64,000 nt of DNA. Origin: Gammaproteobacteria bacterium (GTDB taxonomy: Bacteria > Pseudomonadota > Gammaproteobacteria > Eutrophobiales > Eutrophobiaceae). Numbering within the stretch: position 1 is the stretch's first letter; every line of letters begins with the position of its first letter. The notes beneath the pieces were generated by a model, which was not told the origin of the DNA, did not search any database, and worked only from the letters and a program-made list of their open reading frames with translations. Positions 21,569 through 41,569 of the stretch are shown piece by piece. The translations under genes were made by a program, and so were the position numbers. Where the stretch lies: NCBI GenBank assembly GCA_965116495.1, contig OZ220696.1:2528001-2592000 (forward strand), in the 5' to 3' direction.

Positions 21569-24500
21569 TCAGGCAGCCTCAGGTTGCCTGACCGGATTAC
21601 GCCAGCACTCCCACAGTGATTGCAGTTTTGCACGCGTCCTGGCGACGTTCTCTGACTTGATGTAACCGTACCCGCGCACCTGTTCCGGCAAGCCGGCAAT
21701 CTCGATTGCCAGCGGATAATTTTCGTGGTCCAGGGTCTGCAGCAATTCGGCAACAGTCTGCTCATACTCGCTGATCAATTCCCGTTCCATCTTCCGCTCA
21801 GGTGTCCAGCCGAACGGATCGAACGGCGTGCCGCGCAGGAACCTGAGCCGCTTGAGTAGTCCGAACAGCGGCAACAGCCAGGAGCCGAATTCCATTTTGC
21901 CGGGCCTGCCGGTGAGCTTGTCCTTGCGCGCCAGCAGGGGTGGAGCAAGGTTGAAACGCAGGCTGTAATCGCCTTCAAACTGCTCGTCGAGTTTTTGTTT
22001 GAATGCCGGGTCGCAATACAATCGCGCAACCTCGTATTCGTCCTTGTAGGCCATCAACTTGTAGGCATAGCGGGCAACAGTTGCGGTCAGGCCCGTCCTG
22101 CCGGGGAACTGTTTCTGCTCCACAGCCTCAACCGAACGCACCAATGCCGTGTAGCGTTGCGCGTATGCCGCGTCCTGGTAATCCTTCAGATCCGCCGCGC
22201 GCCGCGTGATAAACGCTTCCAGCGGTTCGTCTGAAACATCAGTGTTAGCCTTATCCGGATTACCGCACAGTTCATTTACCGCTTCAGGGTTATGCGCGGC
22301 GCGGCGTCCCCAGGCAAACGCGTCCTGGTTCCATTGTACGGCCACACCGTTCATTTCTATCGACCGCATGATAGCCTCTTCCGACAACGGGATGAGTCCC
22401 TTCTGCCAGGCGTAGCCGACCATGAACAGGTTGCCCGCTATCGCATCGCCGAGCAGGCGCGTCGCCAGGCGGGTGCTTTCGATCATCTCGAGACGGTCGC
22501 GGCCCAACGCGCCTTGCAGGCGTTTTCGCAGGGATGAGCCGGGGTAGCGCAACTCGGCGTTGCGGGTGAAGTCACCGGTGATGGTCTCATGGGTGTTGAC
22601 TACGGCGTGTGTTTTGTCGGGGCTTAACACCGGGAGAACGCTGTCGCCGGCCGCCACGATTAGATCGCAGCCGAGCAACAGGTCAACGGCGCCGGCGTTC
22701 AGGCGCACGGCATTGATGCTCTCGGGCGTTGCGCCGATACGCAGGTGGGTCAGCACCGGCCCTCCCTTCTGGGCAAACCCCATCTGGTCAACCACCACGA
22801 TGGCGCGACCGTCGATATGTGCGGCCATGCCCAGCAGCGCACCGATCGTGACCACGCCGGTGCCGCCCACTCCGGCGATCAGGATGCCATGAGTGCCTGC
22901 CGTGAGATCGGGTTTATCGGGTTCCGGCAGAACGCGTAACGTTTGGGGCAAGGCATCGGCAACAGGGCCGATCCCCTTGCCTTTGCGCAGGCCGCCCCCG
23001 ACCACAGTGACGAAACTCGGGCAGAAACCTTCTGCGCAGGAATAGTCCTTGTTGCAGGAAGACTGGTCGATACTGCGCTTATGGCCGTAATCCGTGTCCA
23101 GGGGCTGTACCGACACACAATTGGACTGGACGCTGCAATCGCCGCAACCCTCACACACCCTGTCATTGATGAACAACCGCTTTGCCGGGTCGGGGAACAT
23201 GCCGCGCTTGCGCCGCCGGCGTTTTTCCGCGGCGCAGGTCTGGTCGTAAATGAGGACAGTCGTACCCTCAACCTCGCGCAGGTCACGCTGCACCTGGTCC
23301 AGTTCCCTGCGGTGATGCACGGCTGTTCCCGGCGCAAACCCGGGAGTGGCGCCGTATTGTTCCGGTTCATCCGTAACAACTTCAATCCTCTTTACCCCTT
23401 CGGCGTAAACCTGTTGAGTAATTTGCCGGACCGACAGGGGACCGTCCACGGGTTGACCGCCGGTCATGGCGACGGCATCGTTGTAGAGAATTTTATAGGT
23501 CATGTTCACGCCGGACGCTACGGCCGCGCGGATGGCAAGGGTCCCGGAATGGTAATAAGTGCCGTCCCCGATCTGGGCAAAGATGTGCCGGGTCTTCACG
23601 AACGGCGCCTGCCCGATCCAGGGCGCGCCCTCCCCGCCCATCTGGGTCCAGTTATAGACGTCCCGTTCCATCCAGGTAGCCATGAAGTGACACCCTACAC
23701 CGGCGGTTGCACGGCTCCCTTCAGGGACTTTGGTAGACGTGTTGTGGGGACAGCCGGAGCAAAAGTAGGGTAACCGGGAAATCTCCGCCGCTGGTCTTGA
23801 CAAGGCCTGTTCCTGCTGGTTTTTCAGGAACTCAAGGCGCGCCTGTAACCTGTCATTGTCATGGAAGTAGCTGATCCTGGCGGCGATTAACCGGGCGATC
23901 CGGTCTGCGTCCAGTGTCCCCGCCGGATCGACAAGCAATTGATCGTGTTCGTCGTGACGGCCGACGATGCGCGGCCGTTCTGATTCCGGCAGCAGATAAC
24001 AGGCCTTGCGCATCCCGTGTTCAACCTGTTCCCGTTTATCTTCGATGACGAATACTTCTTCCAGCCCCCGGGCGAATTCTCGGTAGCTCTGCTCGTCGAC
24101 CGGGAAAGGCATACCCACCTTGAGGACCGTGATGCCGACCGCCGCGGCTACGCCTTCGTCTATGCCCAGGTCCAGCAAGGCCTGCTGCACATCGCGCCAG
24201 GTCTTGCCCATGGCCGCAATCCCGAACCGGGGCCTGGCGGACGGGTGTGATATGAAATTAAGGTGGTTGGCCCGGGCGAAGGCAAGCGCGGCGGGCAGGC
24301 GGTAATGACGCAGGCGCGACTCCTGCAGGGAAAACATATCCCCTTGCCGGGAATTGACGCCGCCGGGCGGGAATTCAAATTCCGGGGTTAGAATTTTTAT
24401 ATGTTGATGATCCGCCCGGATGGACGCCGCAGTCTCTATCGTCTCAGGCAGCAGTTTGTAGCCAATCCAGTTGCCGCTGAACCGGGACAAGGCGATGCCC

Positions 24501-25054
24501 AGCAATCCCATATCGAACACTTCCTGGATGTCCGCCGGGTACAGGACCGGCATCAGCAGGTCTTCGAACAACAGTTCGGAGTGCCAGGCGGAGATGGTGG
24601 AGGTCATGTTCGGATCATCGCCCGACAGGATCAGCACACCGCCGTGTTCGGCGGAGCCATGCCAGTGGCCCTGCCGGATGGCGTCCAGGCTGCGGTCCAC
24701 GCCGGGCCCCTTGCCGTACCACATGCCGTAGATGCCGTCGTAGTTGGCATCGTCGAAATAATGGACCTGTTGCGTACCCCACAGGGCAGTGGCTGCCAGG
24801 TCTTCATTCAGGCCGGGCCAGAACTTGACGTGATGATCCTGTAAATGTTTCTCGGCGCGCCACAGTTGCTGGTCTATGGCCGTCATGGGCGAGCCGCGAT
24901 AACCGGAAATGAAGCCCGCGGTATTCAGGCCTGCAGCCTGGTCCCTGCGCCGTTGTACCAGCAACAGCCGGACAATGGCCTGGGTACCGGTAAGATAGAC
25001 CCGGCCCTCGTCCAGGGTAAATTTATCATCCAGCTTGACTGCGGCCAGCGCCAT
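21569..25054 (-). CDS. ior: Indolepyruvate:ferredoxin oxidoreductase family protein (fused single chain)
   Basis: GFISGYRGSP, WYGKGPGVDRS, FCSGCPHN, GDGTYYHSG (TPP), CEGCGDC, GVGGTGVVT, YKDEYEVARL. Confidence 0.92.
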   Translation of the reverse strand: MALAAVKLDDKFTLDEGRVYLTGTQAIVRLLLVQRRRDQAAGLNTAGFISGYRGSPMTAIDQQLWRAEKHLQDHHVKFWPGLNEDLAATALWGTQQVHYFDDANYDGIYGMWYGKGPGVDRSLDAIRQGHWHGSAEHGGVLILSGDDPNMTSTISAWHSELLFEDLLMPVLYPADIQEVFDMGLLGIALSRFSGNWIGYKLLPETIETAASIRADHQHIKILTPEFEFPPGGVNSRQGDMFSLQESRLRHYRLPAALAFARANHLNFISHPSARPRFGIAAMGKTWRDVQQALLDLGIDEGVAAAVGITVLKVGMPFPVDEQSYREFARGLEEVFVIEDKREQVEHGMRKACYLLPESERPRIVGRHDEHDQLLVDPAGTLDADRIARLIAARISYFHDNDRLQARLEFLKNQQEQALSRPAAEISRLPYFCSGCPHNTSTKVPEGSRATAGVGCHFMATWMERDVYNWTQMGGEGAPWIGQAPFVKTRHIFAQIGDGTYYHSGTLAIRAAVASGVNMTYKILYNDAVAMTGGQPVDGPLSVRQITQQVYAEGVKRIEVVTDEPEQYGATPGFAPGTAVHHRRELDQVQRDLREVEGTTVLIYDQTCAAEKRRRRKRGMFPDPAKRLFINDRVCEGCGDCSVQSNCVSVQPLDTDYGHKRSIDQSSCNKDYSCAEGFCPSFVTVVGGGLRKGKGIGPVADALPQTLRVLPEPDKPDLTAGTHGILIAGVGGTGVVTIGALLGMAAHIDGRAIVVVDQMGFAQKGGPVLTHLRIGATPESINAVRLNAGAVDLLLGCDLIVAAGDSVLPVLSPDKTHAVVNTHETITGDFTRNAELRYPGSSLRKRLQGALGRDRLEMIESTRLATRLLGDAIAGNLFMVGYAWQKGLIPLSEEAIMRSIEMNGVAVQWNQDAFAWGRRAAHNPEAVNELCGNPDKANTDVSDEPLEAFITRRAADLKDYQDAAYAQRYTALVRSVEAVEQKQFPGRTGLTATVARYAYKLMAYKDEYEVARLYCDPAFKQKLDEQFEGDYSLRFNLAPPLLARKDKLTGRPGKMEFGSWLLPLFGLLKRLRFLRGTPFDPFGWTPERKMERELISEYEQTVAELLQTLDHENYPLAIEIAGLPEQVRGYGYIKSENVARTRAKLQSLWECWRNPVRQPEAA

Positions 25055-25069: not shown

Positions 25070-25570
25070 CTAATACAGTTCCAGTTCGGCTTCTACTTCT
25101 ACCGGTATCCCGAACGGCAATTGCGCCATGCCGACCGCCGAGCGGGTGGAGAGGCCGCGCTCCCTGCCGAAAATTTCCAGTATGGTATTGGAGAAGCCGT
25201 TTATCACCAGCATCTGGTTCGTGAAATCCGGCGCCGAGTTGACCATGCCGAGCACCTTGACCCAGCTTTTTATCCGGTCCAGTTCGCCCAGTTCCCGTTG
25301 AATCGTGCCCAGCATGGACAGGGCGGTTTTGCGGGCGGCTGCCGCGCCCTGCTCCACGGTCAGGTCGGCGCCGACCTTGCCCAACGGCCGGGCGATGCTG
25401 CCGTCGGCCTCCTGGGGACCGTGGCCGGAGACCAGCACCCGCTTGCCGGTCACTTTGATAAAAGCGAGAGGCGCATCCATTCCCGGTGGTATCGCCAACG
25501 GCGCCGGCAATACCAGGCCGAGTTCCTTGATACGTTCATCAGGATTGGTTGAATTCAAGTCTTCAGTCAC
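25070..25570 (-). CDS. RidA/YjgF family protein
   Basis: VSGHGP, GKVGADL, INGFS, RSAVGMAQLPFGIPVEVE. Confidence 0.88.
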   Translation of the reverse strand: MTEDLNSTNPDERIKELGLVLPAPLAIPPGMDAPLAFIKVTGKRVLVSGHGPQEADGSIARPLGKVGADLTVEQGAAAARKTALSMLGTIQRELGELDRIKSWVKVLGMVNSAPDFTNQMLVINGFSNTILEIFGRERGLSTRSAVGMAQLPFGIPVEVEAELELY

Positions 25571-25771
25571 AATCTATTCCTCCACGATGATGGGTTTTAA
25601 CAATGACATTATGCTGATCGGACGGCAGACCGGCTTATCAAAATCGGCATACCAGTATTCGGAGATATACACCCGTGCAGGGATGGATAAGCCGCCTGCC
25701 GGGAAAGATTGGTATTTATATACTACAACTCGGATAATATTAACAGACGGATACACATTTACGGAGACAAC

Positions 25772-26947
25772 ATGCCGGTCTTACCCCGACGCTCGCGTCT
25801 GAACCATTGTCATAACATTGACGATTTACGCGAGGCGGCAAGAAAACGTCTGCCCAGGTTCATCTTCGATTATCTTGAAGGCGGCGCTGATGATGAATTT
25901 ACCCTGAACAGAAACCGCAGTGTCTTCACCGAGTATTACCTGTTGCAACGGGTACTGGTCGACATAGCCGGGATCGATACCTCAACCACCGTGCTGGGCG
26001 AGAAAGTTGCCTTGCCGATTATCTTTACCTCAACTGGCGCCAACAGACTCTACCATCCCGATGGAGAACTGGCCGTGGCCAGGGCCGCGGCCGAAGCAAA
26101 TATCATTCAGATACTGGCGGCGACTGCCATGGTGTCTTTTGATGACGTGGCCGCTGAAACAGCCGGCCACAAGTGGTGCCAGATGTATGTGTTGAAGGAC
26201 CGCGGCTTTACCCGTGAACTGACGGCACACTGCCGTAACCTTGGTTACCGGGCCATGGTACTGACCGCGGACTGCACGGTTGCCGGCAACAGGGAAAGAG
26301 ACTACCGCAACCGGTTTACACTGCCGCCCAAACCCACGCTGAAGACATTGCAACAATTGTCGGTACGCCCCGGCTGGCTGTGGGAATACCTGCGCTCGCC
26401 TGCCTATAGCTTTCCCAACTTTGCCGGAGCGCTGGACAGCCATGACGACGTTGCGTCTATTGTGCAATGGTTCGGCAACCAGATGGATACCACATTTACC
26501 TGGGAAGATGCCGCCAAACTGGCGGAAGAGTGGGGTGGTCCGTTCGTAATCAAGGGTATTACCAGTGTTGCAGACGCCAGGCTTGCCGCCGAGGTCGGCG
26601 CCCATGGAATTTCCCTGTCCAGTCACGGCGGCAGGCAACTGGATCATGCGCCGTCACCCATGGAAGTGTTGCAGGAGGTTGTGGACAGCGTCGGCGATAA
26701 ACTGGAAGTGTTCATCGACAGCGGTTTCAGGCGCGGCACGGATATAATCAAGGCGCTGGCGCTGGGCGCCCGCGCCTGTCTCATCGGCAGGCCTTATTTG
26801 TACGGCCTGACCGCGGGCGGTGAGGCGGGTGTTACGCGTACGATTGAGATCCTTCGCTCAGAGTTGGAACGTGACATGGCTCTCATGGGTACTACAAGCA
26901 TCGCCGGTATAACACCGGACTGTCTGCGCCGGCGCCGGGCCGGTTAA
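25772..26947 (+). CDS. FMN-dependent alpha-hydroxy acid dehydrogenase (LldD/mandelate dehydrogenase family)
   Basis: FDYLEGGADDE, GNRERD, IKG, SSHGGRQLD, DSGFRRGTD; start at ATG 25772 after GGAG. Confidence 0.9.
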   Translation: MPVLPRRSRLNHCHNIDDLREAARKRLPRFIFDYLEGGADDEFTLNRNRSVFTEYYLLQRVLVDIAGIDTSTTVLGEKVALPIIFTSTGANRLYHPDGELAVARAAAEANIIQILAATAMVSFDDVAAETAGHKWCQMYVLKDRGFTRELTAHCRNLGYRAMVLTADCTVAGNRERDYRNRFTLPPKPTLKTLQQLSVRPGWLWEYLRSPAYSFPNFAGALDSHDDVASIVQWFGNQMDTTFTWEDAAKLAEEWGGPFVIKGITSVADARLAAEVGAHGISLSSHGGRQLDHAPSPMEVLQEVVDSVGDKLEVFIDSGFRRGTDIIKALALGARACLIGRPYLYGLTAGGEAGVTRTIEILRSELERDMALMGTTSIAGITPDCLRRRRAG

Positions 26948-26977: not shown

Positions 26978-28126
26978 ATGGATTTTTCACTGACTGAAGA
27001 ACAGCAAATAGCGGTGGACTCGTTCCGACGGTTTGTCGAAACGGAGATACGCCCCGCTATGGAATCCTACGAGGACCAGTTTGTGCCCAGGGAAGAGATG
27101 CGTGCATTGATACGGCAGCTACAACCCTTTGGCGTGATCAATGGACCGGTAGTAGAGGAATACGGCGGCTTCGGCCTGGATCTGCTCACTTATGGACTGT
27201 TGTTCGAGGAGTTAGCCCGTGTTTCAGCCGACCTGGCGGTTGTCGCCCTGTTGCAGATGGAGAGCAGCAAACTGCTCGCCAGCGTTCCTGGTGAACTGAC
27301 CGCGCCGTACCTGCATGCCATAGCCGAATGTGACAAGTTTGGATCCATAGGGATCAGCGAACCCGATGTGGGTTCCAATATTGCTGAAATCAGGACCAGG
27401 GCTAAACGGGACGGCGATCACTTCGTGATTAATGGCGAGAAACAGTGGATATCCAACGGCCACTACTCCGATTTCAATATCTGCGTGGCTCAGGTTGAGG
27501 ATGAGGCGACAGGGAACGGGCTGGCATTGCTGCTGGTGGATCGGGAACACGGCTATGAAAGCCGGAATATTCCCAAGCTGGTCCTGAACAGCCAGTCTAC
27601 GGCACAGTTGTTTTTCAATGACGTACGAGTGCCGGCGGCAAATATGTTGACGCCGCCGGGGAAAGGGTTGGGAAAGATGCTGGGCTTGCTGGAAGCAGGC
27701 CGTCCCCTGGTCGGACTGATGGCCGTTGCCGTGGCGCAAGCGGCGCTGGATGATTCCATAGCTTACGCCGGAGACAGGAAACAGCACGGCAAGCCCATTG
27801 CCGGACACCAGCTGGTCCAGGCCATGATCGCAGAGATGGCGACGGAAATTGACGCCGCAAGACTGTTGTGTTTTCGTGCTCTCGACCAGATCCAGAAAGG
27901 CATCCGCAGTGATATTGAAAGCTCCAAGGCGAAACTGTTTGCCACCGACATGGCGTTGCGGGCCGTGAATAAGGCGATGGAAATCCATGGCGGTAACGGC
28001 CTGACGACGGAGTTCCGCGTGGAAAAACTCTACCGCCTGGCGCGTATCTTCCCCATAACCGAGGGGACAACGGAAATGCAGAAATTGATAATAGGCAGGG
28101 GTTTACTCGGAGTTCCGGCCTTTTAG
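26978..28126 (+). CDS. Acyl-CoA dehydrogenase
   Basis: SEPDVGS, NGEKQWISNG, RKQHGKPI, IHGGNG, EGTTEMQ. Confidence 0.92.
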   Translation: MDFSLTEEQQIAVDSFRRFVETEIRPAMESYEDQFVPREEMRALIRQLQPFGVINGPVVEEYGGFGLDLLTYGLLFEELARVSADLAVVALLQMESSKLLASVPGELTAPYLHAIAECDKFGSIGISEPDVGSNIAEIRTRAKRDGDHFVINGEKQWISNGHYSDFNICVAQVEDEATGNGLALLLVDREHGYESRNIPKLVLNSQSTAQLFFNDVRVPAANMLTPPGKGLGKMLGLLEAGRPLVGLMAVAVAQAALDDSIAYAGDRKQHGKPIAGHQLVQAMIAEMATEIDAARLLCFRALDQIQKGIRSDIESSKAKLFATDMALRAVNKAMEIHGGNGLTTEFRVEKLYRLARIFPITEGTTEMQKLIIGRGLLGVPAF

Positions 28127-28160
28127 AATATGACTCGATTGATTTCTTATGGAGGAATGA

Positions 28161-29342
28161 GTGAATAAGCGAGGCATTGCCATCATCGGCGTGAGCGAGG
28201 TCCCGACCCGGCGCATGCCGGAACGCACACGCTGGGATATCCTGCTCGATGTCTGTATCGGCGCGGTGCGCGACGCGGGCATCGACAAGGACGATATCAA
28301 TGCGGTGATTTCCCCCAACCCCATGGCGCAACCGCAGATAGCCCTGGAAATGGCGCTGGGAAGAATCCCTGAAGTGCTGGGTTTGAACGGCTGCCGCGAT
28401 ATCTGCGTGACCAACGCCGGCGGCACGTCGACAACCAACTGTATCCGCATCGCCGAACAGCTGATCGATTCCGGCCAGGCCGATTTCGTGCTTATTCCCC
28501 ATACTACGGTCCAATCGGACATCCCTGTGCAAGACCTGATCAATTTCTTTGCCACGGCGCCGCTGGACAAGGAGTGGGAATATCCCTGGGGGGTGTCGTT
28601 CAACGGGTCCATGGGCCTGATTACCCAGCGCTACATGTACGAAACCGGGGCGACGGCGGAGGACATGGCGGCAGTGACCGTGGGTCTCAGGGCCTGGGCG
28701 GCGCTGGACCCCAATTCGATATTTTACGAAAAACCCGTGACCCTTGAAGACGTGCTCAATTCCCGCATGGTCAGCACGCCCCTGCATGCCCGGGAGTGCA
28801 ACCTGCTGGCGGACGGCGGCGGGGCGCTGGTATTGACGTCCCATGACATTGCGAAACAACTTGGCGGCAAGGCTACCTACAAGCTGGGTCATGGAACGCG
28901 CTTCATGAGCGCGACGCCGGTGCTGCGCAAGGACGTGTTCCATCGCCGGGCCTACGGTGAAACGAGCGGCGATGCCCTGGAGCAGGCAGGTTTATCGATC
29001 GGGGACATGGACCTGCGCCAGATCTACGGCGCCTATCCATACACGCAGTGTTCCGCCCTGGAAGCGTACGGAGTCTGCGCCATCGGCCAAGGGGCGAAAC
29101 TGTGGGCGGAGGGTCGCTGCAGTCCGGGCGGCGACCTGCCCTGCACCACCATGGGAGACGCCACCGGCCGCGGCCACGTAGGCTCAGGCGTGAGCATGGC
29201 CTTCTATATCGATACCGCCAGACAGTTGTTCGGTGAGGCAGGCGAACGCCAGGTCCCGGATTGCGCGCACGCCATCCTTACGACCTCGGGCGGTTCGGTT
29301 ATGAACGCCTGTACGACAGTATTCGGGAGGGAACCGCGATGA
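28161..29342 (+). CDS. Thiolase-fold protein, SCP-x/Ltp2-like, lacking the canonical nucleophilic Cys
   Basis: SRMVSTPLHARECNLLADGGGA, GDLPCTTMG, RQLFGEAGERQV; GGTS at the usual CAS position. Confidence 0.8.
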   Translation: MNKRGIAIIGVSEVPTRRMPERTRWDILLDVCIGAVRDAGIDKDDINAVISPNPMAQPQIALEMALGRIPEVLGLNGCRDICVTNAGGTSTTNCIRIAEQLIDSGQADFVLIPHTTVQSDIPVQDLINFFATAPLDKEWEYPWGVSFNGSMGLITQRYMYETGATAEDMAAVTVGLRAWAALDPNSIFYEKPVTLEDVLNSRMVSTPLHARECNLLADGGGALVLTSHDIAKQLGGKATYKLGHGTRFMSATPVLRKDVFHRRAYGETSGDALEQAGLSIGDMDLRQIYGAYPYTQCSALEAYGVCAIGQGAKLWAEGRCSPGGDLPCTTMGDATGRGHVGSGVSMAFYIDTARQLFGEAGERQVPDCAHAILTTSGGSVMNACTTVFGREPR

Positions 29343-29752
29343 GTGAAAGACAACGACCCCTGCCGGAGATACAGTCTTTTTCCAGGCCGTTCTGGGACGG
29401 GACCCGCGCCCACAAACTGCTGATCCAGCATTGCTGCGACTGTGACGCCCTGATCTTCTACCCGCGCCGGGAATGTCCCGAATGCTGGTCCACCAACCTG
29501 GACTGGAAGGAAAGCAGCGGCAAGGCAACCCTGTACTCTTATTCCATAACCTACGAAGGCGTGGAAGAGAAGTTTGCCGACGACCTGCCGATTATCCTGG
29601 CCTGGGTGGATCTGGCGGAAGGGGTCAGGATAACGACCAATATTATCGATTGCGACCCCGGTGATGTTTATATAGGCATGGAACTTGAGGTCGCGTATCG
29701 CGCGCTGACCGACGAAGTGACCCTGCCGTTCTTTAGACCTGTTAAATCATGA
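29339..29752 (+). CDS. DUF35 Zn-ribbon/OB-fold protein
   Basis: RPFWDG, CCDC...YPRRECPEC, VDLAEGVRI, LPFFRP; ATGA overlap with the thiolase-like gene. Confidence 0.88.
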   Translation: MSERQRPLPEIQSFSRPFWDGTRAHKLLIQHCCDCDALIFYPRRECPECWSTNLDWKESSGKATLYSYSITYEGVEEKFADDLPIILAWVDLAEGVRITTNIIDCDPGDVYIGMELEVAYRALTDEVTLPFFRPVKS

Positions 29753-29812
29753 ACAGCCTCCATGTCTGAACTTGCCGGCAGGTTAAAACAGGAAGCCTGC
29801 TGTTTTCCTGTT

Positions 29813-29865
29813 GGGGAACAGACCCCCGCTTACAACATGCGGGGGCATGCTTGAAATCTGTCCCC
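29813..29865. repeat. Family B element with nested GC hairpin
   Basis: GGGGAACAGA...AAATCTGTCCCC enclosing CCCCCGC-N9-GCGGGGG. Confidence 0.6.
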
Positions 29866-30435
29866 GAAAAGTCAGAGCATAGCAGACCAGGTTGGGGCAA
29901 ATGGGGAACCTGGGAGGAGACTGAATCGTTCTTGGGCAAGGTCATCGGCGTCGCAGAGGGCGCGGACGCCGTGGAACAGGGCACCATCAGGCGCTGGATG
30001 GAATCCAAGGAGTTCGACTGCCCCATCCACCTTGACGATGCGGCCGCCCGGGCGGCGGGCTACAATGGCATAATTGCGCCGGACAGCATGATCTTCACCT
30101 ACGGCCTCCCTGCCTACTGGCAGAGTGGCGACCCCCATGAAAAGCCCGGCGCCGAGCCCAAACAAATTCCCATCCCGGTCATTTTCGATGTGCCGGCGCC
30201 CTGCAACCTGAGTTTCGCCTCCAATATCGACGTGGAATATTTCGCGCCCATGTACCTGGGTGACCGGATTACCCGCACCAGCCGCCTGGTGAGCATAAAT
30301 CGCAAGACCCTGCGGGTCGGCAACGGCGCCTTTCTGCGCCAGGAAGACACCTACACCAACCAGCATGACGAGGTGGTTGCCATCGTCAACCTGGATATAT
30401 TCAGGTTCGTTGCGCCGGACGGCAAGGAAGACTGA
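29851..30435 (+). CDS. MaoC/FAS1-like dehydratase N-terminal-type subunit
   Basis: VEQGTIRRW, PIHLDDAAARAAGYNGIIAP, EYFAPMYLGD, YTNQHDEVVA; start uncertain (TTG inside a repeat). Confidence 0.8.
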   Translation: MKSVPEKSEHSRPGWGKWGTWEETESFLGKVIGVAEGADAVEQGTIRRWMESKEFDCPIHLDDAAARAAGYNGIIAPDSMIFTYGLPAYWQSGDPHEKPGAEPKQIPIPVIFDVPAPCNLSFASNIDVEYFAPMYLGDRITRTSRLVSINRKTLRVGNGAFLRQEDTYTNQHDEVVAIVNLDIFRFVAPDGKED

Positions 30436-30436
30436 A

Positions 30437-30868
30437 ATGGTCGACTGGTCCAGGCAGATAACCCTTGACGATGTAGCCGTAGGCGCGGAGATTCCGGAAA
30501 CCTCCATGCCCATCACCCTGCAGCGCCTGGTGATGGAAGCCGGCTCCAACCGCGACCTGTCGCTCATCCACCATGACAAGGAAGTAGCGCAATCAACCGG
30601 CGCTTCCGACGCTTACATGAATACGTTTTTTATCCTGGGCCTGTTCGAAAGAATGCTGCGGGAGTGGATGGGGACGGGAGGCAGGCTGAAAAAGATCGGC
30701 TCCCTGCAGATGAAGTCCTTCAACGTCGTCGGCGACGTCGTCTATTGCAGGGGCAAGGTAACCGGCAAGCAGGATGACGGGACGGTGAACCTTGATATCC
30801 GGATGGAGAATGAGGAAAGGGTTACTGTGACCGCGGTCACTGTGGTAAACCTGCCATTGGAAGCGTAA
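30437..30868 (+). CDS. MaoC-family dehydratase subunit
   Basis: AGSNRDLSLIHHD hydratase motif, GKVTGK. Confidence 0.82.
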   Translation: MVDWSRQITLDDVAVGAEIPETSMPITLQRLVMEAGSNRDLSLIHHDKEVAQSTGASDAYMNTFFILGLFERMLREWMGTGGRLKKIGSLQMKSFNVVGDVVYCRGKVTGKQDDGTVNLDIRMENEERVTVTAVTVVNLPLEA

Positions 30869-32847: not shown

Positions 32848-32872
32848 CCACCAGAACGTCTCAGTCATTCTC

Positions 32873-34223: not shown

Positions 34224-34386
34224 TCTTATTTTGTGATGCTATCTCGCTTTTTTGACAAGCCTACATATTGTAGATGAACCCCTCCCAGTAACCTGATCTA
34301 CCTGCGGTTAAGGCCAAAGCTTAACTGATTTGCCAAATTCATCTATCTACCAATCGTCCGAACCGATAATAGACTGAACACAGTCT

Positions 34387-34650: not shown

Positions 34651-34659
34651 ATCATGCGT

Positions 34660-34926
34660 TCAGTCGAACAAGTCGGAGTGTGTTCCATTGCGTACCAGAA
34701 TGAGAGCATCTTGTCTCTGGTCCCAAATTAATAACCAGTCCGGTTCTACATGACATTCCCAATAAGAAGACCACTTGCCTGATAGCCGATGAGGTCTGTT
34801 TACTGGATCAAGGGGTTGCTGTGACAGTAGCCGTTCAACAATACGCCAAAGCTTGTCGAGATCCTTACCGCGTCTCCTTGAGCGCTTGAGATCCTTTTCA
34901 AATCGCTTCGTAGTAAGCAGTCGCAC
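34660..34926 (-). CDS. yafQ: YafQ family toxin
   Basis: TKRFEKDLKR, HRLSGKW, ECHVEPDWLLIW, RNGTHSDLF. Confidence 0.92.
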   Translation of the reverse strand: MRLLTTKRFEKDLKRSRRRGKDLDKLWRIVERLLSQQPLDPVNRPHRLSGKWSSYWECHVEPDWLLIWDQRQDALILVRNGTHSDLFD

Positions 34927-34929
34927 GTA

Positions 34930-35187
34930 TTACCTGTGTCTGGCCTTGAGACTCTCCAAATCGGCGTATTCAGTGAGACCTGCTCCGGATTGCGCTTGGT
35001 GGAGCGCTTTGATGGTCTCGGCATTGGGAACCTTCACAGCAAAGGGTAACCCTTTATGCAGGGTGACCTGCGTGTAAAACAACGTAATCGCCTCGGTTGG
35101 CGACAGGCCGAGCTTCGATAAAACATCTTCGGCCTGGTGTTTCAATTCCGGCTCAACGCGAGCGCGGATCATTTCAGTCTTTGCCAT
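34930..35187 (-). CDS. dinJ: DinJ/RelB family antitoxin
   Basis: IRARVEPELK.QAE.VL..LGLS..EAI.LF...GLPFAVKVPNAET. Confidence 0.92.
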   Translation of the reverse strand: MAKTEMIRARVEPELKHQAEDVLSKLGLSPTEAITLFYTQVTLHKGLPFAVKVPNAETIKALHQAQSGAGLTEYADLESLKARHR

Positions 35188-35213
35188 GGACACCTCAGTT
35201 GTAGTTCTCGGAT

Positions 35214-35241
35214 AATGTACCACAAATGGGATACAAGTCAA
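35214..35241 (-). promoter_or_regulatory. dinJ-yafQ promoter/operator
   Basis: Minus strand TTGACT-N16-TACATT with an imperfect TGTA...TACA inverted repeat. Confidence 0.55.
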
Positions 35242-35258
35242 CATACATAACCCTGCAT

Positions 35259-35359
35259 AAACGTGTCATCGGCTTTAAGAATAATGGTCTTCATCGCTGT
35301 ATCTGGTATTACTGATTTAAGTAGTTATAGCGGGGAGGAGGACAGATTTCAAATCTATA
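35259..35359. repeat. 101-bp direct repeat, copy 2, with a 12-codon antitoxin remnant
   Basis: Minus strand TTGAAA-N17-TATAAC, then MKTIILKADDTF, then unrelated sequence and a stop. Confidence 0.9.
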
Positions 35360-35394
35360 AGCCAATTGATTAAGCTATCGCGACGGTTTGTTCT

Positions 35395-35424
35395 ACTGGA
35401 TACCGGGTCAAGCCCGGTACGACG
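35395..35424 (-). repeat. REP-like palindrome, family A variant
   Basis: Minus strand CGTCGTACCGGGCTTGACCCGGTATCCAGT; right edge of the TA islet. Confidence 0.75.
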
Positions 35425-35467: not shown

Positions 35468-36646
35468 CTAATCCTTAACCAATTCGCTGCCGATGATCAA
35501 TTGCCGGATCTGCACCGTGCCGCCGCCGATTTCCAGGAGTTTGCCGCAGCGGTAAAGTTGGTTAATCTCCGCCTCGCGCATGAAGCCCATGCCGCCGTGT
35601 ACCTGTACGCCGTTGTCCAGTACGCGCATGCAGGCGCGCGCCGTTTGCAGGAACACCGCGGCGCAGCGTTTCTGCAGTTCGCCCTGGCTCAAACCTTCTT
35701 TATCCTCTGCAAATAGTTGCTGCGCGGTCTGGTAGGTAAACGCTCGCATGGTTTCCACGTCGGTGTACATATCGGCCAGCATGGCCTGCACCAATTGGAA
35801 ATTGCCGATGGGCCGGCCGAACTGCTCACGGGTTCGGGCATATTCAATGGATATGTCCAATGCCCGCTGCGCCACCCCCAGGTTGTAGAACCCAAGTACC
35901 AGGCGCTCGACGTTCAGGCCGCTCATCATGACTGCAACTCCCTTGTTCTCGCCGCCCATGAGGTTGTCTGCCGGCACCTCGCAATCGGTGAAAATCAGTT
36001 CGCCGGTGGGACTGCCGCGCCAACCCATCTTGTCCAGCTTCTGCGCGCTGCTGAAACCGGGAAACTCTCTCTCGACGATGAAGGCGGAGATGCCGTGATG
36101 CCCCTGTTCCGGGTCCGTCCTGGCATAGACCACCGCGATATCGGCCACCGGCGCGTTGGAGATGAACATCTTGCGGCCGTTGAGAATAAACTTATCGCCC
36201 TGCCTGACTGCCGCCGACTTCATGCTGCCCAGAGCATCCGACCCGGCGCCGGGTTCGGTCATGCCCATGGCGCCGATCGCGCTTCCATCACAGAAGCGCG
36301 GCAGGTATGTCCGTTTCTGTCCGGCGCTGCCGTTGCGCACGATATTGTGGACGCAGATATTCTCGCTGGAGAGCCAGGCCGCGCAGAATGAGTGGCTCCA
36401 GTAGGCCATGGCTTCGGCGGCGACGCACTGCGCCAGGAAATCCAGTCCCTGCCCGCCGAATTCTTCCGGGACCGTCAGCCCGAGCAACCCGACGTCGGCA
36501 AGCGAGCGGAAACGTTCTTCGGGGAACCAGTCGTCCCGGTCCATCCTGTCGTTCAGCGGGTGCAGTTCCTCCCTGCTGAAGCGATACACCGCATCGTAGA
36601 CCTGCTGGTATTCGTCCGCGAAGCCGTATGAGGAGAGCTTGATCAT
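35468..36646 (-). CDS. Acyl-CoA dehydrogenase, isovaleryl-CoA dehydrogenase-like
   Basis: MTEPGAGSD, KLDKMGWRGSPTGEL, MMSGLNVERL, LLEIGGGT (IVD-type catalytic Glu position). Confidence 0.9.
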   Translation of the reverse strand: MIKLSSYGFADEYQQVYDAVYRFSREELHPLNDRMDRDDWFPEERFRSLADVGLLGLTVPEEFGGQGLDFLAQCVAAEAMAYWSHSFCAAWLSSENICVHNIVRNGSAGQKRTYLPRFCDGSAIGAMGMTEPGAGSDALGSMKSAAVRQGDKFILNGRKMFISNAPVADIAVVYARTDPEQGHHGISAFIVEREFPGFSSAQKLDKMGWRGSPTGELIFTDCEVPADNLMGGENKGVAVMMSGLNVERLVLGFYNLGVAQRALDISIEYARTREQFGRPIGNFQLVQAMLADMYTDVETMRAFTYQTAQQLFAEDKEGLSQGELQKRCAAVFLQTARACMRVLDNGVQVHGGMGFMREAEINQLYRCGKLLEIGGGTVQIRQLIIGSELVKD

Positions 36647-36663: not shown

Positions 36664-36747
36664 CATTCCTAATTCCTAATTCGTAATTCCTACTTCCTAA
36701 TTCGTAATTCCTAATTCCTAACCCGTAATTCCTAACCCGTAATTCCA
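36664..36747. repeat. Heptamer tandem repeat, 12 units of AATTC(C/G)T and variants
   Basis: AATTCCT/AATTCGT/AACCCGT units; overlaps the CoA-transferase stop codon. Confidence 0.92.
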
Positions 36748-37907
36748 GATATGATGTTGTCCGCCAACAATTCCGCGATTCGCTCCCCGCTATACCCCCA
36801 ATCCAGCAATACCTCTTCCGTGTGCTGTCCGGGTTCCGGCGGCGGCGACTGTATCTCCGCAGGGGTCCGGCTGAAGCGGGGTGCGGGCGCGGGTTGTATG
36901 ACTCCGTCGACGCTGGCGTAAGCGTCCCTGGCCTGCGCGTGGGGGTGCTGCGTGGCTTCCGTCAGGCCCAGTACCGGCGCGAAGCAGGCATCGGAGCCAT
37001 CAAATATCTCGCACCATTCATCTCGGGTTCTGGTCAGGAATATGTCCTGCAATTTGTCAGCAAACTCCGGCCAGCGGTCCTGGTTGTGCTGCTGCTTGCG
37101 CAGCTCCGGGTCGCTGATTTCAAGCCGGTCCAGCAATTCGCTGTAGAACCGCCCTTCAATCGGTGCAACAACCACGTACTGATCGTCTTTGGTCCGGTAG
37201 GTATTCACGAAATGGGCGCCGCCGTCCAGGATGTTGCTGCCCCGTTGTTCTTTCCAGAGCCCTGCGGCCAGCAATCCGTAAAACGCTGTCATCATGGACG
37301 CCGCGCCGTCGACCATGGCCGTGTCAACCACCTGCCCCCGCCCTGATTTTGCCGTCTCCAGCATGGCGGCCAGCATTCCCATGGCCAGGTACAGGGCACC
37401 GCCGCCGAAATCGCCGATCAGGTTCAACGGATAAGCCGGCGCTTCATCCTGTTTGCCGATACAGGCCAGGACTCCGGCGATACCGATGTAGTTGGGATCG
37501 TGTCCCGCGGTTTCAGCCAGCGGACCGTCCTGCCCCCAGCCGGTCATACGGCCGTAGACCAGCCTCCCGTTGCGCCCCATGCACTCATCCGGCCCCAGCC
37601 CCAGGCGTTCCATGACCCCGGGCCGGAACCCTTCGAACAGCGCATCGGCGCCGGCGCACAGGTCCAGGACAACATCCCTGCCCTGTGGTTGTTTCAGGTC
37701 TATGGCGATGGAGCGCCTGCTCCTGTTCATCAGCTTGTATTTCACGGGCATGTAAACGCCCAGTTCCACCTTGGTGAGGCGTTCGACGCGTACGATCTCC
37801 GCGCCCATGTCCGCCAGCAGCATACCGGTCAACTGGGTGGGGCCGACACCGGCAATCTCAATCAGCTTATAGCCGGACAGGGGGCCTTTGGCGTTATTTG
37901 CAGGCAT
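36732..37907 (-). CDS. CaiB/BaiF family III CoA-transferase, alpha-methylacyl-CoA racemase-like
   Basis: LADMGAE, EGFRPGVMERLGLG, AGHDPNY, LIGDFGGG, PAPAPRFSRTP. Confidence 0.9.
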   Translation of the reverse strand: MPANNAKGPLSGYKLIEIAGVGPTQLTGMLLADMGAEIVRVERLTKVELGVYMPVKYKLMNRSRRSIAIDLKQPQGRDVVLDLCAGADALFEGFRPGVMERLGLGPDECMGRNGRLVYGRMTGWGQDGPLAETAGHDPNYIGIAGVLACIGKQDEAPAYPLNLIGDFGGGALYLAMGMLAAMLETAKSGRGQVVDTAMVDGAASMMTAFYGLLAAGLWKEQRGSNILDGGAHFVNTYRTKDDQYVVVAPIEGRFYSELLDRLEISDPELRKQQHNQDRWPEFADKLQDIFLTRTRDEWCEIFDGSDACFAPVLGLTEATQHPHAQARDAYASVDGVIQPAPAPRFSRTPAEIQSPPPEPGQHTEEVLLDWGYSGERIAELLADNIISGITG

Positions 37908-37915: not shown

Positions 37916-38380
37916 CTACCAGTAACGTAGCAGGAAGGTGCCGACGGCTACCGGTTCGTCCCAGCCGGCGACGTTGAAGGTGACGTCATAATGGACGGTG
38001 ATGGCCTTGTCCTTTTTTGCCACTTCGGCAATGCGGGTAGTTGCGGTTACCCTGGCCCCGGCAATTATCGGCGCCAGCAGGCGAAACCGGTCCGTGCCGT
38101 AAAACAGGGCATTGATGCTGCCGTACTCGAAGGACTGGAAGAACAGGGTCGGGAACAGGGCCGGCAGCAAAAATAACGGTGCGATTACGCCGCCGAACTG
38201 TTCGTTGCAACGGTCCTCGTCCCAGTGGACCCATTCCTCGTTGTTTATGGACCGGCAAAATGCCTGTATCCTGTCCTTGTCGATTTCGAATGGTTCGGAG
38301 GTGGCGATAACCTCTCCCTCACGTTCCATAAACCATTGAATGTCATTGATAATCGTTTTTTCCGGCATGATTGTTGTCAT
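37916..38380 (-). CDS. MaoC/NodN-like dehydratase
   Basis: RIQAF....NEEWVHWD.....FGGVIAP, YGTDRFRLLAP. Confidence 0.8.
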   Translation of the reverse strand: MTTIMPEKTIINDIQWFMEREGEVIATSEPFEIDKDRIQAFCRSINNEEWVHWDEDRCNEQFGGVIAPLFLLPALFPTLFFQSFEYGSINALFYGTDRFRLLAPIIAGARVTATTRIAEVAKKDKAITVHYDVTFNVAGWDEPVAVGTFLLRYW

Positions 38381-38483: not shown

Positions 38484-39461
38484 ATGGCCAAGACTGCACA
38501 ACCCGGGTCAAATAATACCGCATACACGGAAGAGGAACTGAACGCTATCGAGGCGGCCATACTGCAACGCATCGAGGCCGGCGAGATCTTCGAGGACATG
38601 GATGATCTGTCACCGAAGTTCCGGGCAATACTGAAGATGACGGCCGACCTGGCCGCGGTCAGCGAGGTCTCCGTGCTGACCTGGGCTTACACGGCTTACC
38701 GCACCGCCCCCGACATCGGCGCCAAGATCGCGGTGTGCGCCACCATCCTCGACGAGGTGGGCCATGCCTACCACCAGGGACTGCTTGCTGAACGCTTCGG
38801 CGTCGACATGCACCAGCGGGCGTTTGAGGATGACGTCGACACCATCTGGACCTGGCCGATCATGGAGGTGCCGATACGAAACTATGTCGAGTTCGTCGTC
38901 ATGCAGGCGCTGCTGGACCGCGCCGGCCTGCACTGGACCAAAGACATCGAGTTGCATTGCAGTTTTGCCCCCTATCGCAGGACCCTGAGAAAGGTCAACT
39001 TCGAGGAGGGATTCCACATGCGTCACGGCGCCTTCTGGACCGAGTTTTACTGGAATCATTCTGATGAAACTCGCGAGTGGGTACAAAAGGCGGTGGACTG
39101 GCTGTTCCCGTTCGGGGTGATGTGGTTCGGCAAGCCCGACGACCTGCGTAACCGGCCGGACATGCTGAAATATCGCGTGCGCGGCTGGGGCAACGACTTC
39201 ATGCGTGACAAATGGCTGCAGTCCGCCAGCGCTTTCTGCGACAAGCTGGGAATAAACATACCGGCAAGTTTCGACAAGGAAAAAAACAAGTGGGTGCTGG
39301 ATATGCCCTACCCGATGCTGTACGACGCGGAAAACTATCAATGGTCGTGGGAGGAATGTACCCAGAAGGAATACTGGTCCCACTCCCGCAAAGGCGGTCC
39401 GATGCGTCCCGGTGCCTATGACCGGTTACGCCGTGAGGAATGGGGGGACGCCCTGTGGTAG
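38484..39461 (+). CDS. PaaA-like di-iron catalytic subunit (divergent CoA-ester epoxidase/oxygenase)
   Basis: Ligand set SE...DEVGH...D(RAG)...EEGFH aligns with PaaA; SFAPY.R.L. Confidence 0.8.
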   Translation: MAKTAQPGSNNTAYTEEELNAIEAAILQRIEAGEIFEDMDDLSPKFRAILKMTADLAAVSEVSVLTWAYTAYRTAPDIGAKIAVCATILDEVGHAYHQGLLAERFGVDMHQRAFEDDVDTIWTWPIMEVPIRNYVEFVVMQALLDRAGLHWTKDIELHCSFAPYRRTLRKVNFEEGFHMRHGAFWTEFYWNHSDETREWVQKAVDWLFPFGVMWFGKPDDLRNRPDMLKYRVRGWGNDFMRDKWLQSASAFCDKLGINIPASFDKEKNKWVLDMPYPMLYDAENYQWSWEECTQKEYWSHSRKGGPMRPGAYDRLRREEWGDALW

Positions 39462-39772
39462 TCACCACGGAAACTGTGCGCGCCGCGGTAGGGCGGGTAC
39501 TTGACCCTCATATCAACGTCAACCTCCACGAGATGGGGATGGTAAGCGATATTTCCATCGGGAACGGGGGTGACGTGGAAGTATCCATTGTGTTTCCCTG
39601 CCTGGGTTGTCCCGCCTATACCATGTTGAAGGAACAGGTCAGACACCAGGTTGCCAGGGTGGATGGCGTCACATCCGTCCGGGTGAAGGTTGACTGGGAG
39701 GGGCGCTGGGACCGGTCACAAATGTCGGACCGCGCCAAACTGTATGCCCAGCAACATGGCTATCGAATTTGA
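39455..39772 (+). CDS. DUF59/PaaD N-terminal-like metal-cluster assembly protein
   Basis: VLDPHINVNLHEMGMV, GCPA, W..RWD..QMS. Confidence 0.82.
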   Translation: MVVTTETVRAAVGRVLDPHINVNLHEMGMVSDISIGNGGDVEVSIVFPCLGCPAYTMLKEQVRHQVARVDGVTSVRVKVDWEGRWDRSQMSDRAKLYAQQHGYRI

Positions 39773-40008
39773 TGTCGGACCAGGGTTTCAGTGGCGCAAA
39801 CATGACATTCGAGGTTTTCGGACGCGATCAGCTGGAACGACCCTTGTCCCACATAGGCAGTATCCAGGCGCCCAACCAGGACCTGGCTGTCGCCCGTGCC
39901 CGGTTTATGTATTCGGAACGCCAGTGGGTTGAGTTGTGTGTAGCGCCTTCAGAGTCATTCGTGGCCTGTCTTTCCCCGGTGAGACGGGGCAGCATCGGCA
40001 TGGCCTGA
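39772..40008 (+). CDS. PaaB-like small subunit
   Basis: FEVFGR......HIGSIQAPNQDLAVARARFMY.ER. Confidence 0.78.
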   Translation: MSDQGFSGANMTFEVFGRDQLERPLSHIGSIQAPNQDLAVARARFMYSERQWVELCVAPSESFVACLSPVRRGSIGMA

Positions 40009-40013
40009 CCATT

Positions 40014-40220
40014 ATGCCGACCTCAGCAGACCAGCATGCCGACAGGAACGGCGCCTGTGCGGAACGCCCCGAGCGTGAAGTGTTGTGCCCCTGGTGCGAA
40101 TCCGCAAATACCAGGCTGGTCAGCCCTTATGGCCCCAGCGTGGCTGAAATGTTGTTCCAATGTGATGATTGCCACGACAGTTTCGGCTGGCTGAAGTGGG
40201 AACAGCGCCTGCCCGATTAG
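40014..40220 (+). CDS. Stand-alone PaaD C-terminal-like Zn-ribbon protein
   Basis: CPWCESANTRLVSPYGPS......CDDCHDSF..LK. Confidence 0.78.
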   Translation: MPTSADQHADRNGACAERPEREVLCPWCESANTRLVSPYGPSVAEMLFQCDDCHDSFGWLKWEQRLPD

Positions 40221-40244
40221 GTAATTCAGCCGGATGTGTAAAAA

Positions 40245-41126
40245 ATGCACCTGAACGATAAGGTAAAACCGCTGATCCGGGCAGAACTGCTGTGTATCGC
40301 CGACAGCAACTGGATACTGGGTCACTGGTACATCAACTGCATGCTGAACGGCCGCGAACTGACGGACTTTACGTCAATGGCCGGTATCGCCGAGGAGAAA
40401 CTGGGGCATACGCGGGCACTGTTCAGGTTTCTTGAAGAAATTTATGGGTGTCCTGAATTTCAGCTTGAGTTCGGCCGTGATGCGAGGCAGGTTCACAGCC
40501 CGGAATTCCTTGATCAGCCCCCGGAAAGCTGGGCTGATTTCATCACCTGCCTGTTCCTCGCCGACCTGGCGTTGTGGCGTTTTTCCTCGACGTTCATGGA
40601 GGGGAAGTTCAACCCTGTTGCAAACCTTGTCAGGCGCTTCGGCGAGGAATGTTATTTCCACCAATTGTGTATCGACGGCTGGATAAAAAGTTTTTCTACT
40701 ACGGAAAAAACTGAAGCCGGAGTGGCGCTGATCAAACGACTACCACAGGTATTGGCATGGTTCGGTTCCGAGCGGCAATCAGCTGATGATTTATTGCTTG
40801 AGGAAGGGCTCAGAACCGAGTCCGTCTGGTCAGCCAGGACGAGGTTTATCCAGGACATAGCTGAAAAATTATCACCCCATACGGACGTCTCAACCGATCA
40901 GCTTACTGACATCGCCGGGCAGGTATTGCCGGAAGACCGGGATTCCCGGCGCCGGCGCCGGGCAGGCAGCGAAATGCCGGCGAGTCTCTGGGAAACCGTG
41001 ATACCAACCAGCGAGGCCGCGCAGATAGCCAGACGACCTCTCGCCGTCAGTATAAAAGACAATATAGACCTGTTTCAGGCAGCTAAGAAAGACGAAACCG
41101 AACCCGTATTTGAAGCCGGCAGGTAA
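40245..41126 (+). CDS. PaaC-like structural subunit
   Basis: LLCIADSNWILGH, degenerate ligand motifs EEKLGH and EECYFH, PESWAD. Confidence 0.75.
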   Translation: MHLNDKVKPLIRAELLCIADSNWILGHWYINCMLNGRELTDFTSMAGIAEEKLGHTRALFRFLEEIYGCPEFQLEFGRDARQVHSPEFLDQPPESWADFITCLFLADLALWRFSSTFMEGKFNPVANLVRRFGEECYFHQLCIDGWIKSFSTTEKTEAGVALIKRLPQVLAWFGSERQSADDLLLEEGLRTESVWSARTRFIQDIAEKLSPHTDVSTDQLTDIAGQVLPEDRDSRRRRRAGSEMPASLWETVIPTSEAAQIARRPLAVSIKDNIDLFQAAKKDETEPVFEAGR

Positions 41127-41154
41127 GTTTCTTCGAAAGAAAAACCGATCAATG

Positions 41155-41212
41155 TGCCATTCTCGCGCAAGCGGGAATCCATGCTATAGACTCCTGCTTC
41201 CGCAGGAGTGGA
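41155..41212. repeat. Inverted doublet of family A palindromes
   Basis: TGCCATTCTCGCGCAAGCGGGAATCCAT followed by TAGACTCCTGCTTCCGCAGGAGTGGA. Confidence 0.7.
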
Positions 41213-41254
41213 GTGAGGAGATTCCCTCACAGGAATCGGACCGGGAGTAGAGAA

Positions 41255-41569
41255 CTAATTGTCCGCGATGCGGAGAATGAGCCCCTCCAGTTCATCGGTT
41301 ACATGTACCTGGCAGGTAAGACGGCTGTTGCTACGGCGCCCGGGCAACGCACACAACATGGCCTCTTCCAGGTCCTCGATCACAGGTAATTTATCCAGCC
41401 AGTCCGTATCAATGTAGGAATGGCAGGTACCGCATGCCGCGGCGCCGCCACATTCCGCCAGCATGCCTGCAAGCTGCTGGTTGAATGCCCCCTCCATCAG
41501 GGAATAACCCGCTTCAACGTCAATTTCATGCCGGTTATTACCAGCGTCGATATAAATTACGATAGGCAT
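41255..41569 (-). CDS. 2Fe-2S ferredoxin, putidaredoxin/adrenodoxin type
   Basis: ECGGAAACGTCH...SRLTCQ. Confidence 0.9.
   Translation of the reverse strand: MPIVIYIDAGNNRHEIDVEAGYSLMEGAFNQQLAGMLAECGGAAACGTCHSYIDTDWLDKLPVIEDLEEAMLCALPGRRSNSRLTCQVHVTDELEGLILRIADN

Follow-up and report, generated by a model that had tools for sequence, protein, structure and literature searches.

Does a rearranged operon for a PaaABC-type di-iron oxygenase encode a phenylacetyl-coenzyme A (CoA) epoxidase, and if not, what does its product act on? We addressed this question for 64,000 nucleotides of a Gammaproteobacteria bacterium (assembly GCA_965116495.1, contig OZ220696.1, positions 2,528,001 to 2,592,000), referred to here as the window. 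The window carries five plus-strand genes in the order A, DUF59, B, Zn-ribbon, and C, with a ferredoxin gene in convergent orientation, just as an earlier note on this DNA had read from the sequence. All six open reading frames (ORFs) are open over their full length and the Pfam matches of all six proteins exceed the curated cut-offs. The 5' end of the DUF59 gene overlaps the 3' end of the A gene (an alternative start, GTG 39455, is possible), and the start ATG of B overlaps the DUF59 stop codon (TGATG). Among 94 surveyed loci whose A is at least 45% identical, those in which each of the five genes was matched show the order A-DUF59-B-Zn-C without exception (71/71), so the arrangement is not due to chance. 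The operon is thus a real, intact, and conserved system. The homologues span several gammaproteobacterial lineages; marine metagenomes and uncultured members of the class are the main sources, and two are the cultured Thalassotalea sp. HSM 43 and Y01. Within the genus, 12 of 22 other genomes carry the divergent A, and in a distant family it is present in 5/151. All 400 other genomes in a random sample across the class lack it, which indicates a patchy spread.

The A protein matches PF05138 with 111 bits (cut-off 28.5), but the NCBIfam equivalog models for Paa proteins (TIGR02156-02159) all fail, with 72.8 of the required 280 bits for A, 27 of 85 for B, 31 of 133 for C, and 39 and 36 of 108 for the two halves of D. 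The BoxB model TIGR03225 gave no match to the operon proteins at E 0.01. To place A, we picked 30 sequences from 106 and rooted the tree on C subunits. Sixteen divergent A sequences fall on one side of a branch with support 99/98, and nine PaaA sequences (E. coli, Rhodococcus, haloarchaea, the copy of the source genome itself, and four database entries) on a 100/100 branch. A constraint joining the 11-sequence clade of the window with the PaaA of E. coli, Rhodococcus, and the source genome was rejected (approximately unbiased test, p=0.00048), and a quick tree of all 106 sequences gave the identical split. The wider divergent clade takes in operons from Agrobacterium, Thermus, and haloarchaeal plasmids, with 31-36% identity to the window A. 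By sequence, the window A clade is sister to PaaA and outside the PaaA orthologues, and the non-PaaA identity proposed in the earlier note has withstood the phylogeny. Elsewhere in the family, PF05138 and PF01883 occur together in P0057 (426 aa), possibly as an A-DUF59 fusion or read-through, and P0258, with 847 aa, belongs to one of the A clusters.

The iron ligands of E. coli PaaA are E42, E72, H75, D126, E155, and H158 (PMC4498308). They align to E61, E91, H94, D145, E175, and H178 in the window A, with 6/6 kept. The same positions in C are N22, K52, H55, D107, C136, and H139, of which three (N22, K52, C136) have lost the ligand; both had been anticipated, the loss in C as a loss of "some". 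An AlphaFold model of the window A (53-sequence alignment, predicted local distance difference test score (pLDDT) 92.6) is predicted to adopt the helical fold of the PaaA type: its best fold match is PaaA 3PW8 (template modelling (TM) score 0.78, E 5e-13), and BoxB is matched weakly (E 8e-4). In PaaA, the lysine bridge K68/E49 was proposed to relay electrons from PaaE, and F108 to orient the substrate (PMC4498308, PMC7497051). Comparing the pocket by alignment only, we found that the window A, which is 22.6% identical to E. coli PaaA, has T87 and A68 at the bridge positions, M127 in place of F108, and W122 in place of K103. In the alignment, K68 and E49 are absent from 17/17 divergent A sequences and present in 4/4 PaaA sequences.

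Taken together, the window system resembles PaaABC(D)E (E. coli 3PW8/3PVR, Klebsiella 4IIT; TIGR02156-02160) in its fold, in the six ligands of A, and in having a non-catalytic C paralogue, a B subunit, and the DUF59 and Zn-ribbon parts of PaaD, which would have a role in metal-centre maturation. It differs in sequence (23% identity), in its position in a sister clade, in the lost bridge and the replaced F108 and K103, in its order A-D1-B-D2-C, and in having a free ferredoxin and no flavo-PaaE; its neighbours are MaoC, an indolepyruvate:ferredoxin oxidoreductase (IOR), acyl-CoA dehydrogenases, and a molybdenum (Mo) enzyme instead of paaG/Z/K. The window enzyme would work like PaaABC, yet four of the features examined place it outside the phenylacetyl-CoA epoxidases. 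The claim that the arrangement is non-canonical has to be narrowed. The gene order is specific, but a split PaaD without flavo-PaaE already exists in haloarchaeal paa clusters with NCBIfam models of their own (NF041867-NF041869; Haloferax lucentense plasmid). Unlike the window, these clusters have the order A-B-C-D1-D2, and in their PaaA, which falls among the canonical PaaA sequences in the tree, K68/E49 are retained.

The source genome (99.5% complete, one contig) also has canonical paa genes: paaABCDE and paaX clustered at about 4.16 Mb, paaZ/I/K at about 4.11 Mb, and paaJ. The encoded proteins have 35-71% identity to those of E. coli. Its own PaaA, PaaC, and PaaE pass the equivalog cut-offs, and so do BoxB and BoxC, encoded near 3.47 Mb. 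When E. coli paa proteins were compared with the genome by tblastn, only PaaA reached the window among the top five matches listed per query. The best genome matches of paaE, paaG, paaZ, and paaK, which the earlier note had not recognised in the window, indeed lie outside it, and none of the four is among the conserved neighbours of A; the separate canonical cluster for which the note had suggested a search is likewise there. Eleven of the 12 A-bearing genus genomes also have canonical PaaA (the twelfth is 77% complete), as do 5/5 distant hosts examined. Since PaaA and BoxB are each substrate-specific (PMC4498308) and canonical paa and boxBC are encoded elsewhere in the genome, a different substrate for the window enzyme is more likely; plain benzoyl-CoA is already covered by BoxB and BoxC. 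By sequence comparison, the operon is a third CoA-thioester epoxidase-type enzyme in this genome, separate from its PaaA and BoxB.

These data bear directly on one alternative, that the window encodes a second phenylacetyl-CoA 1,2-epoxidase, fed by IOR from phenylpyruvate. The fold and subunit set are alike, databases label many members PaaA, and IOR-family enzymes can make phenylacetyl-CoA. We nevertheless regard an isoenzyme as very improbable because A misses the PaaA equivalog cut-off by about 200 bits, forms a separate clade, and has lost the lysine bridge and F108, and because canonical paa is kept in nearly all hosts while paaG, Z, and K are not among the conserved neighbours. Directly upstream of the canonical paaA lies a gene for a 754-aa reductive dehalogenase (TIGR02486 over cut-off; L037:6146-8410, at about 4156-4158 kb in the genome). 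A VanA-type Rieske oxygenase is encoded close by, and these genes suggest breakdown of halogenated aromatics.

We next examined the surroundings of the operon. We sorted the 94 loci into 16 groups at 85% A identity and counted the 12 groups with a locus of at least 10 kb (four were dropped), using flanks of up to 10 kb. Owing to this limit on the flanks, whole genomes were searched too (the 22 of the genus and the 151 of the distant family). This survey, which the earlier note had recommended, brought out the two most informative partner genes, neither of which the note contains: a divergently transcribed MaoC gene, present in every group (Table 1), and the IOR gene, 13 kb upstream of the operon. 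AraC and TetR regulators occur in 8 groups and the ferredoxin in 3. An IOR orthologue is found in exactly the 12/22 genus genomes that have A (at least 74% identity, paralogues at most 54%) and in exactly the 5/151 distant-family genomes that have A. It co-occurs with A even at a distance of about 60 kb (G579) or 226 kb (G405). In genome G451, IOR is split into two overlapping ORFs (L137:7497-10963), reflecting either a frameshift or an assembly error. Wider regions in four of these genomes with A have FMN (flavin mononucleotide) dehydrogenase, RidA, CaiB, and AraC genes close by.

IOR-type enzymes convert aryl-pyruvates into arylacetyl-CoA and reduce ferredoxin. From the genes, fold, ligands, phylogenetic position, and co-inheritance described above, we infer a reaction sequence, an electron path, and a class of substrates. 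The PaaABC-type oxygenase would epoxidise a (hetero)arylacetyl-CoA at its ring, the substrate being distinct from phenylacetyl-CoA and made by the co-inherited IOR, and MaoC would process the epoxide; we hold this proposal about evenly balanced between right and wrong. A modified aromatic amino acid or 2-hydroxy acid may be converted into the 2-oxo acid by the FMN dehydrogenase, RidA, and nearby amidases. IOR would decarboxylate the 2-oxo acid to the acyl-CoA, releasing two low-potential electrons. A 2Fe-2S ferredoxin, dedicated in the close subclade, would carry electrons from IOR or from an unlinked reductase to the di-iron site, in place of PaaE. With B and C, A would put one oxygen across the ring bond adjoining the side chain, and MaoC would isomerise or hydrolyse the epoxide/oxepin. 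The hydratase domain for ring cleavage in PaaZ likewise has the hotdog fold and may be a separate gene (PMC9493321).

The dedicated ferredoxin is found in the same 12/22 genus genomes as A and adjoins the A operon, in either orientation, in 30/31 loci at 68% A identity or more. The predicted A-ferredoxin complex scored 0.54 (best control 0.00), in a benchmark in which a passing mark of at most 0.60 was reached by 5/78 solved complexes and by all four mismatches that passed. Its contacts agree to 100% between runs and the partner pLDDT is at least 88. This model weakly suggests that the two proteins form a complex.

Several observations weigh against the arylacetyl-CoA scheme. The ferredoxin is beside A in 0/28 loci below 68% identity, and genome G451 has no close orthologue of it. 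Genes of the putidaredoxin-reductase type are found elsewhere in 5/5 genomes examined, which means that IOR need not be the donor. IOR itself lies within the 10 kb flanks in just 4/12 groups, and its identity cut-offs, like those of the other orthologues, were set after viewing the gap between orthologues and paralogues, in genomes that are kin rather than independent and represent two lineages only. The conserved neighbours include no aldehyde dehydrogenase, and a crotonase only occasionally (3/12 groups), leaving a ring-opening route of the PaaG/PaaZ type incomplete. MaoC lacks the usual catalytic Asp: the position of this residue in the PaaZ hydratase domain is taken by Asn/Gln, and a conserved acidic residue follows two positions later. 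Finally, several acyl-CoA dehydrogenases, CaiB, and the S/N-oxide reductase have no place in the scheme. As to the electron supply, the suggestion that the convergent ferredoxin might be the donor is limited to the close loci, the dedicated ferredoxin being a feature of the close subclade only. A simple motif pattern scan, which is not a family search, gave no match to another Fe-S protein in the 28 distant loci. The electron donor could be either an unlinked ferredoxin reductase or IOR.

Operons annotated with a "phenylacetic acid catabolic protein" (Agrobacterium pAt, Natrialbaceae, Haloterrigena, and Thermus plasmids) share with the window the deep 99/98 clade and the lack of the lysine bridge, and those of Agrobacterium pAt, Natrialbaceae, and Haloterrigena also start with A-DUF59-B. 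Unlike the window clade, these plasmid-borne sister operons have the Zn-ribbon match after C, and their neighbours are crotonases, aldehyde dehydrogenase, UbiD, and thioesterase. We found no study on the divergent A clade or its plasmid sister operons in a literature search that covered few subscription journals. In the Haloterrigena turkmenica pHTUR01 operon (L042), the neighbours comprise two UbiD decarboxylases, a CoA transferase, a free 2Fe-2S ferredoxin, and a NuoF-like protein. This operon, from a strain in culture, is a candidate for an aromatic pathway in archaea.

The sister operons bring up a second explanation, in which the window enzyme stands in for BoxB and acts as an epoxidase on a substituted benzoyl-CoA or a heteroaroyl-CoA. 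The FMN dehydrogenase and IOR would make aroyl-CoA from a mandelate- or arylglyoxylate-type compound, and arylpropionates would reach this point after side-chain shortening by the thiolase-fold cassette. The crotonases beside the Thermus and haloarchaeal operons, in two cases together with aldehyde dehydrogenases, amount to a set of the BoxC/BoxD type, and the genomes with the thiolase cassette are a subset of those with A, as expected of an optional feeder. BoxB/BoxA (TIGR03225) also performs a di-iron epoxidation of an aromatic CoA ester, as proposed for the window enzyme, with a transient reductase that carries Fe-S clusters, and BoxB is described as active without a PaaE-type reductase as well (PMC4498308). 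On the other hand, BoxB is a single 470-aa subunit with only the weak fold match to A given above, the genome has a true BoxB and BoxC, and the window clade has no conserved set of crotonase and aldehyde dehydrogenase and shares just 31-36% identity with the sister proteins. We thus consider the aroyl-CoA route somewhat unlikely. Another enzyme of possible relevance is the p-hydroxybenzoyl-CoA 1-hydroxylase PhgA of Brevibacillus, which we take to be a PaaA-like di-iron enzyme and which is likened to the window A by description, not sequence. PhgA oxygenates a different aromatic CoA ester, and the available text of its description names no B, C, or D subunits (PMC11848710). The solo protein SSO1313 (4MUD) is a fold and sequence relative of the window A. 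On an Alteromonas macleodii plasmid (L130:6926-9281), another solo PF05138-type protein is followed by radical SAM and MaoC genes, beside a Tn3 transposase; it may represent another divergent use of the fold.

A third explanation dispenses with the aromatic ring: the enzyme could hydroxylate or desaturate a branched or alicyclic acyl-CoA, or oxygenate S or N in a sulfur/nitrogen amino-acid-like compound, with the oxide being reduced by the Mo enzyme. A BisC-like S/N-oxide reductase is present in 5/5 A-bearing distant-family genomes (6/151 overall) and in 12/12 A-bearing genus genomes (17/22 overall). The isovaleryl-type dehydrogenase, CaiB, and hydratase/aldolase genes fit beta-branched substrates, and many of the residues that line the PaaA core differ in A. 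However, the Mo enzyme is also found without A, in 5 genus genomes and 1 distant genome, and the characterised members of this fold branch covered by our reading act on aromatic CoA esters. Such chemistry hence appears quite unlikely to us. The genome contains two BisC-like enzymes with 61% identity, the window copy and an upstream copy at C1:2491570-2493915. Close orthologues of the window copy are limited to 2/22 genus genomes, and the C1:2491570 paralogue is nearer to the copies in other clusters.

Returning to the arylacetyl-CoA scheme, its most attractive single candidate substrate would, by analogy, be indole-3-acetyl-CoA. It is favoured because an epoxide-initiated breakdown of indole-3-acetate with side-chain removal by a thiolase-fold protein has been proposed for Variovorax (PMC12633357), and the logic of ibuprofen breakdown is related (PMC9195938). 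The ibuprofen ipf and Variovorax iad systems combine ring oxygenation by the acyl side chain with subsequent thiolase-fold side-chain removal, for iad via a proposed indole 2,3-epoxide intermediate (PMC9195938, PMC12633357). Both use Rieske oxygenases, unlike the window, and the thiolase cassette of the window is optional. The notion of an obligatory thiolase/DUF35 step after the epoxidase, as in ipf, was rejected as a general rule, as 4/5 A-bearing distant-family genomes lack a match to the thiolase-fold query. In its boldest form, the indole version predicts that marine Gammaproteobacteria have, in addition to paa and box, a third aerobic hybrid route that depends on CoA. From tryptophan or a substituted indole amino acid, IOR would produce indole-3-acetyl-CoA, and the IOR electrons would pass via ferredoxin to a di-iron epoxidase acting at indole C2=C3, with no NAD(P)H reductase. 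Although decidedly doubtful in this form, the route would, if true, amount to redox-self-sufficient ring activation. Tryptophan 2,3-dioxygenase passes the cut-off in 0/5 A-bearing genomes, 1/22 genus genomes has a (broken) match regardless of A, and none of the four cyclase-family genes of the genome lies near the operon; these results are uninformative on indole. Tyrosine has another route in most hosts examined, as 4-hydroxyphenylpyruvate dioxygenase (HPPD) is present in 3/5 and HmgA in 4/5.

Whatever its substrate, the system has wider implications. Two multi-step CoA-epoxide pathways are well described, paa and box, and the window would mark a third that is conserved and has a defined gene set. 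PaaA and PaaC serve as markers of phenylacetate degradation (PMC13186573), and as divergent members are often labelled with these names, surveys of phenylacetate degradation may be inflated. A natural di-iron epoxidase-type enzyme without lysine bridge and without PaaE offers a direct test of the electron-relay role proposed for the bridge, and possibly a new biocatalyst for arene epoxidation.

Table 1. Genes of the operon and its surroundings; positions refer to the window and groups to the 12 counted groups of loci.
Feature	Position	Strand	Basis
A, catalytic di-iron subunit, PaaA-like, 325 aa	38484..39461	+	PF05138 7e-32; six ligands kept, lysine bridge lost (T87, A68)
DUF59 protein, PaaD N-terminal half, predicted maturation factor	39440..39772	+	PF01883 4e-15; TIGR02159 positions 3-87
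B, PaaB-like bridging subunit	39772..40008	+	PF06243 2e-8; under TIGR02157 cut-off
Zn-ribbon protein, PaaD C-terminal half	40014..40220	+	PF23451 1e-13; TIGR02159 positions 101-144; NF041869
C, PaaC-like structural subunit	40245..41126	+	PF05138 2e-14; ligands absent at three of six positions
Putidaredoxin-type 2Fe-2S ferredoxin, likely electron carrier in close subclade	41255..41569	-	PF00111 (Fer2)
MaoC-like hotdog protein, divergent from A, predicted epoxide/oxepin processing	37916..38380	-	MaoC in 12/12 groups; same 12/22 genus genomes as A
CaiB/family III CoA transferase or racemase	36732..37907	-	6/12 groups
Isovaleryl-CoA-dehydrogenase-like acyl-CoA dehydrogenase	35468..36646	-	Best PDB matches are isovaleryl-CoA dehydrogenases; 5/12 groups
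Optional cassette: acyl-CoA dehydrogenase, thiolase-fold protein, DUF35/ChsH2, FAS1-like and MaoC hydratase pair	26978..30868	+	7/12 groups
FMN-dependent 2-hydroxy-acid dehydrogenase, would supply 2-oxo acid	25709..26947	+	4/12 groups
RidA/YjgF-like protein adjoining IOR	25070..25570	-	5/12 groups
Fused IOR, PRK13030 family, Fe-S motif	21569..25054	-	NF009589 1586 bits, cut-off 816
BisC-like molybdenum S/N-oxide reductase (DMSO-reductase-like), no N-terminal extension	18836..21166	-	Mo enzyme family in 5/12 groups

The optional thiolase cassette is predicted to be a module for side-chain shortening or retro-aldol cleavage. Its thiolase-fold protein is found in the same 12/22 genus genomes as A, yet in only 1/5 A-bearing genomes of the distant family. 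The protein lacks the N-terminal Cys, has DUF35 next to it, and keeps the catalytic Tyr of Ltp2/Sal in a YGAY motif without the His/Cys of YDHF/YDCY; in the Ltp2 and Sal aldolases, Tyr acts as the base (PMC12329534). The genes for an acyl-CoA synthetase, a CoA-binding protein, and a sulfhydrylase to the right of the ferredoxin were left out of the system, being conserved mainly in the close genus. A promoter and terminator scan of the locus gave a chance-level result only, and in two RNA runs from one study, the contigs were short and covered only the start of A and a few neighbouring genes, which is no demonstration of transcription.

Between the thiolase cassette and the acyl-CoA dehydrogenase lies a low-GC island (window 30900-35400; 47% GC, genome 55%); in relatives, the two blocks are adjacent. 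The island carries a HicB antitoxin (Pfam) and further small ORFs that resemble toxin-antitoxin pairs in their motifs. At window 11307-18806, two EthD-domain proteins, three short-chain dehydrogenases/reductases, a DUF5938 protein, and an acyl-CoA ligase beside a TonB receptor make up another, uncharacterised catabolic block. The DNA that immediately precedes the window contains one ORF of 8353 aa (C1:2499426-2524487), which has a signal-peptide-like start and possibly encodes a giant surface protein.

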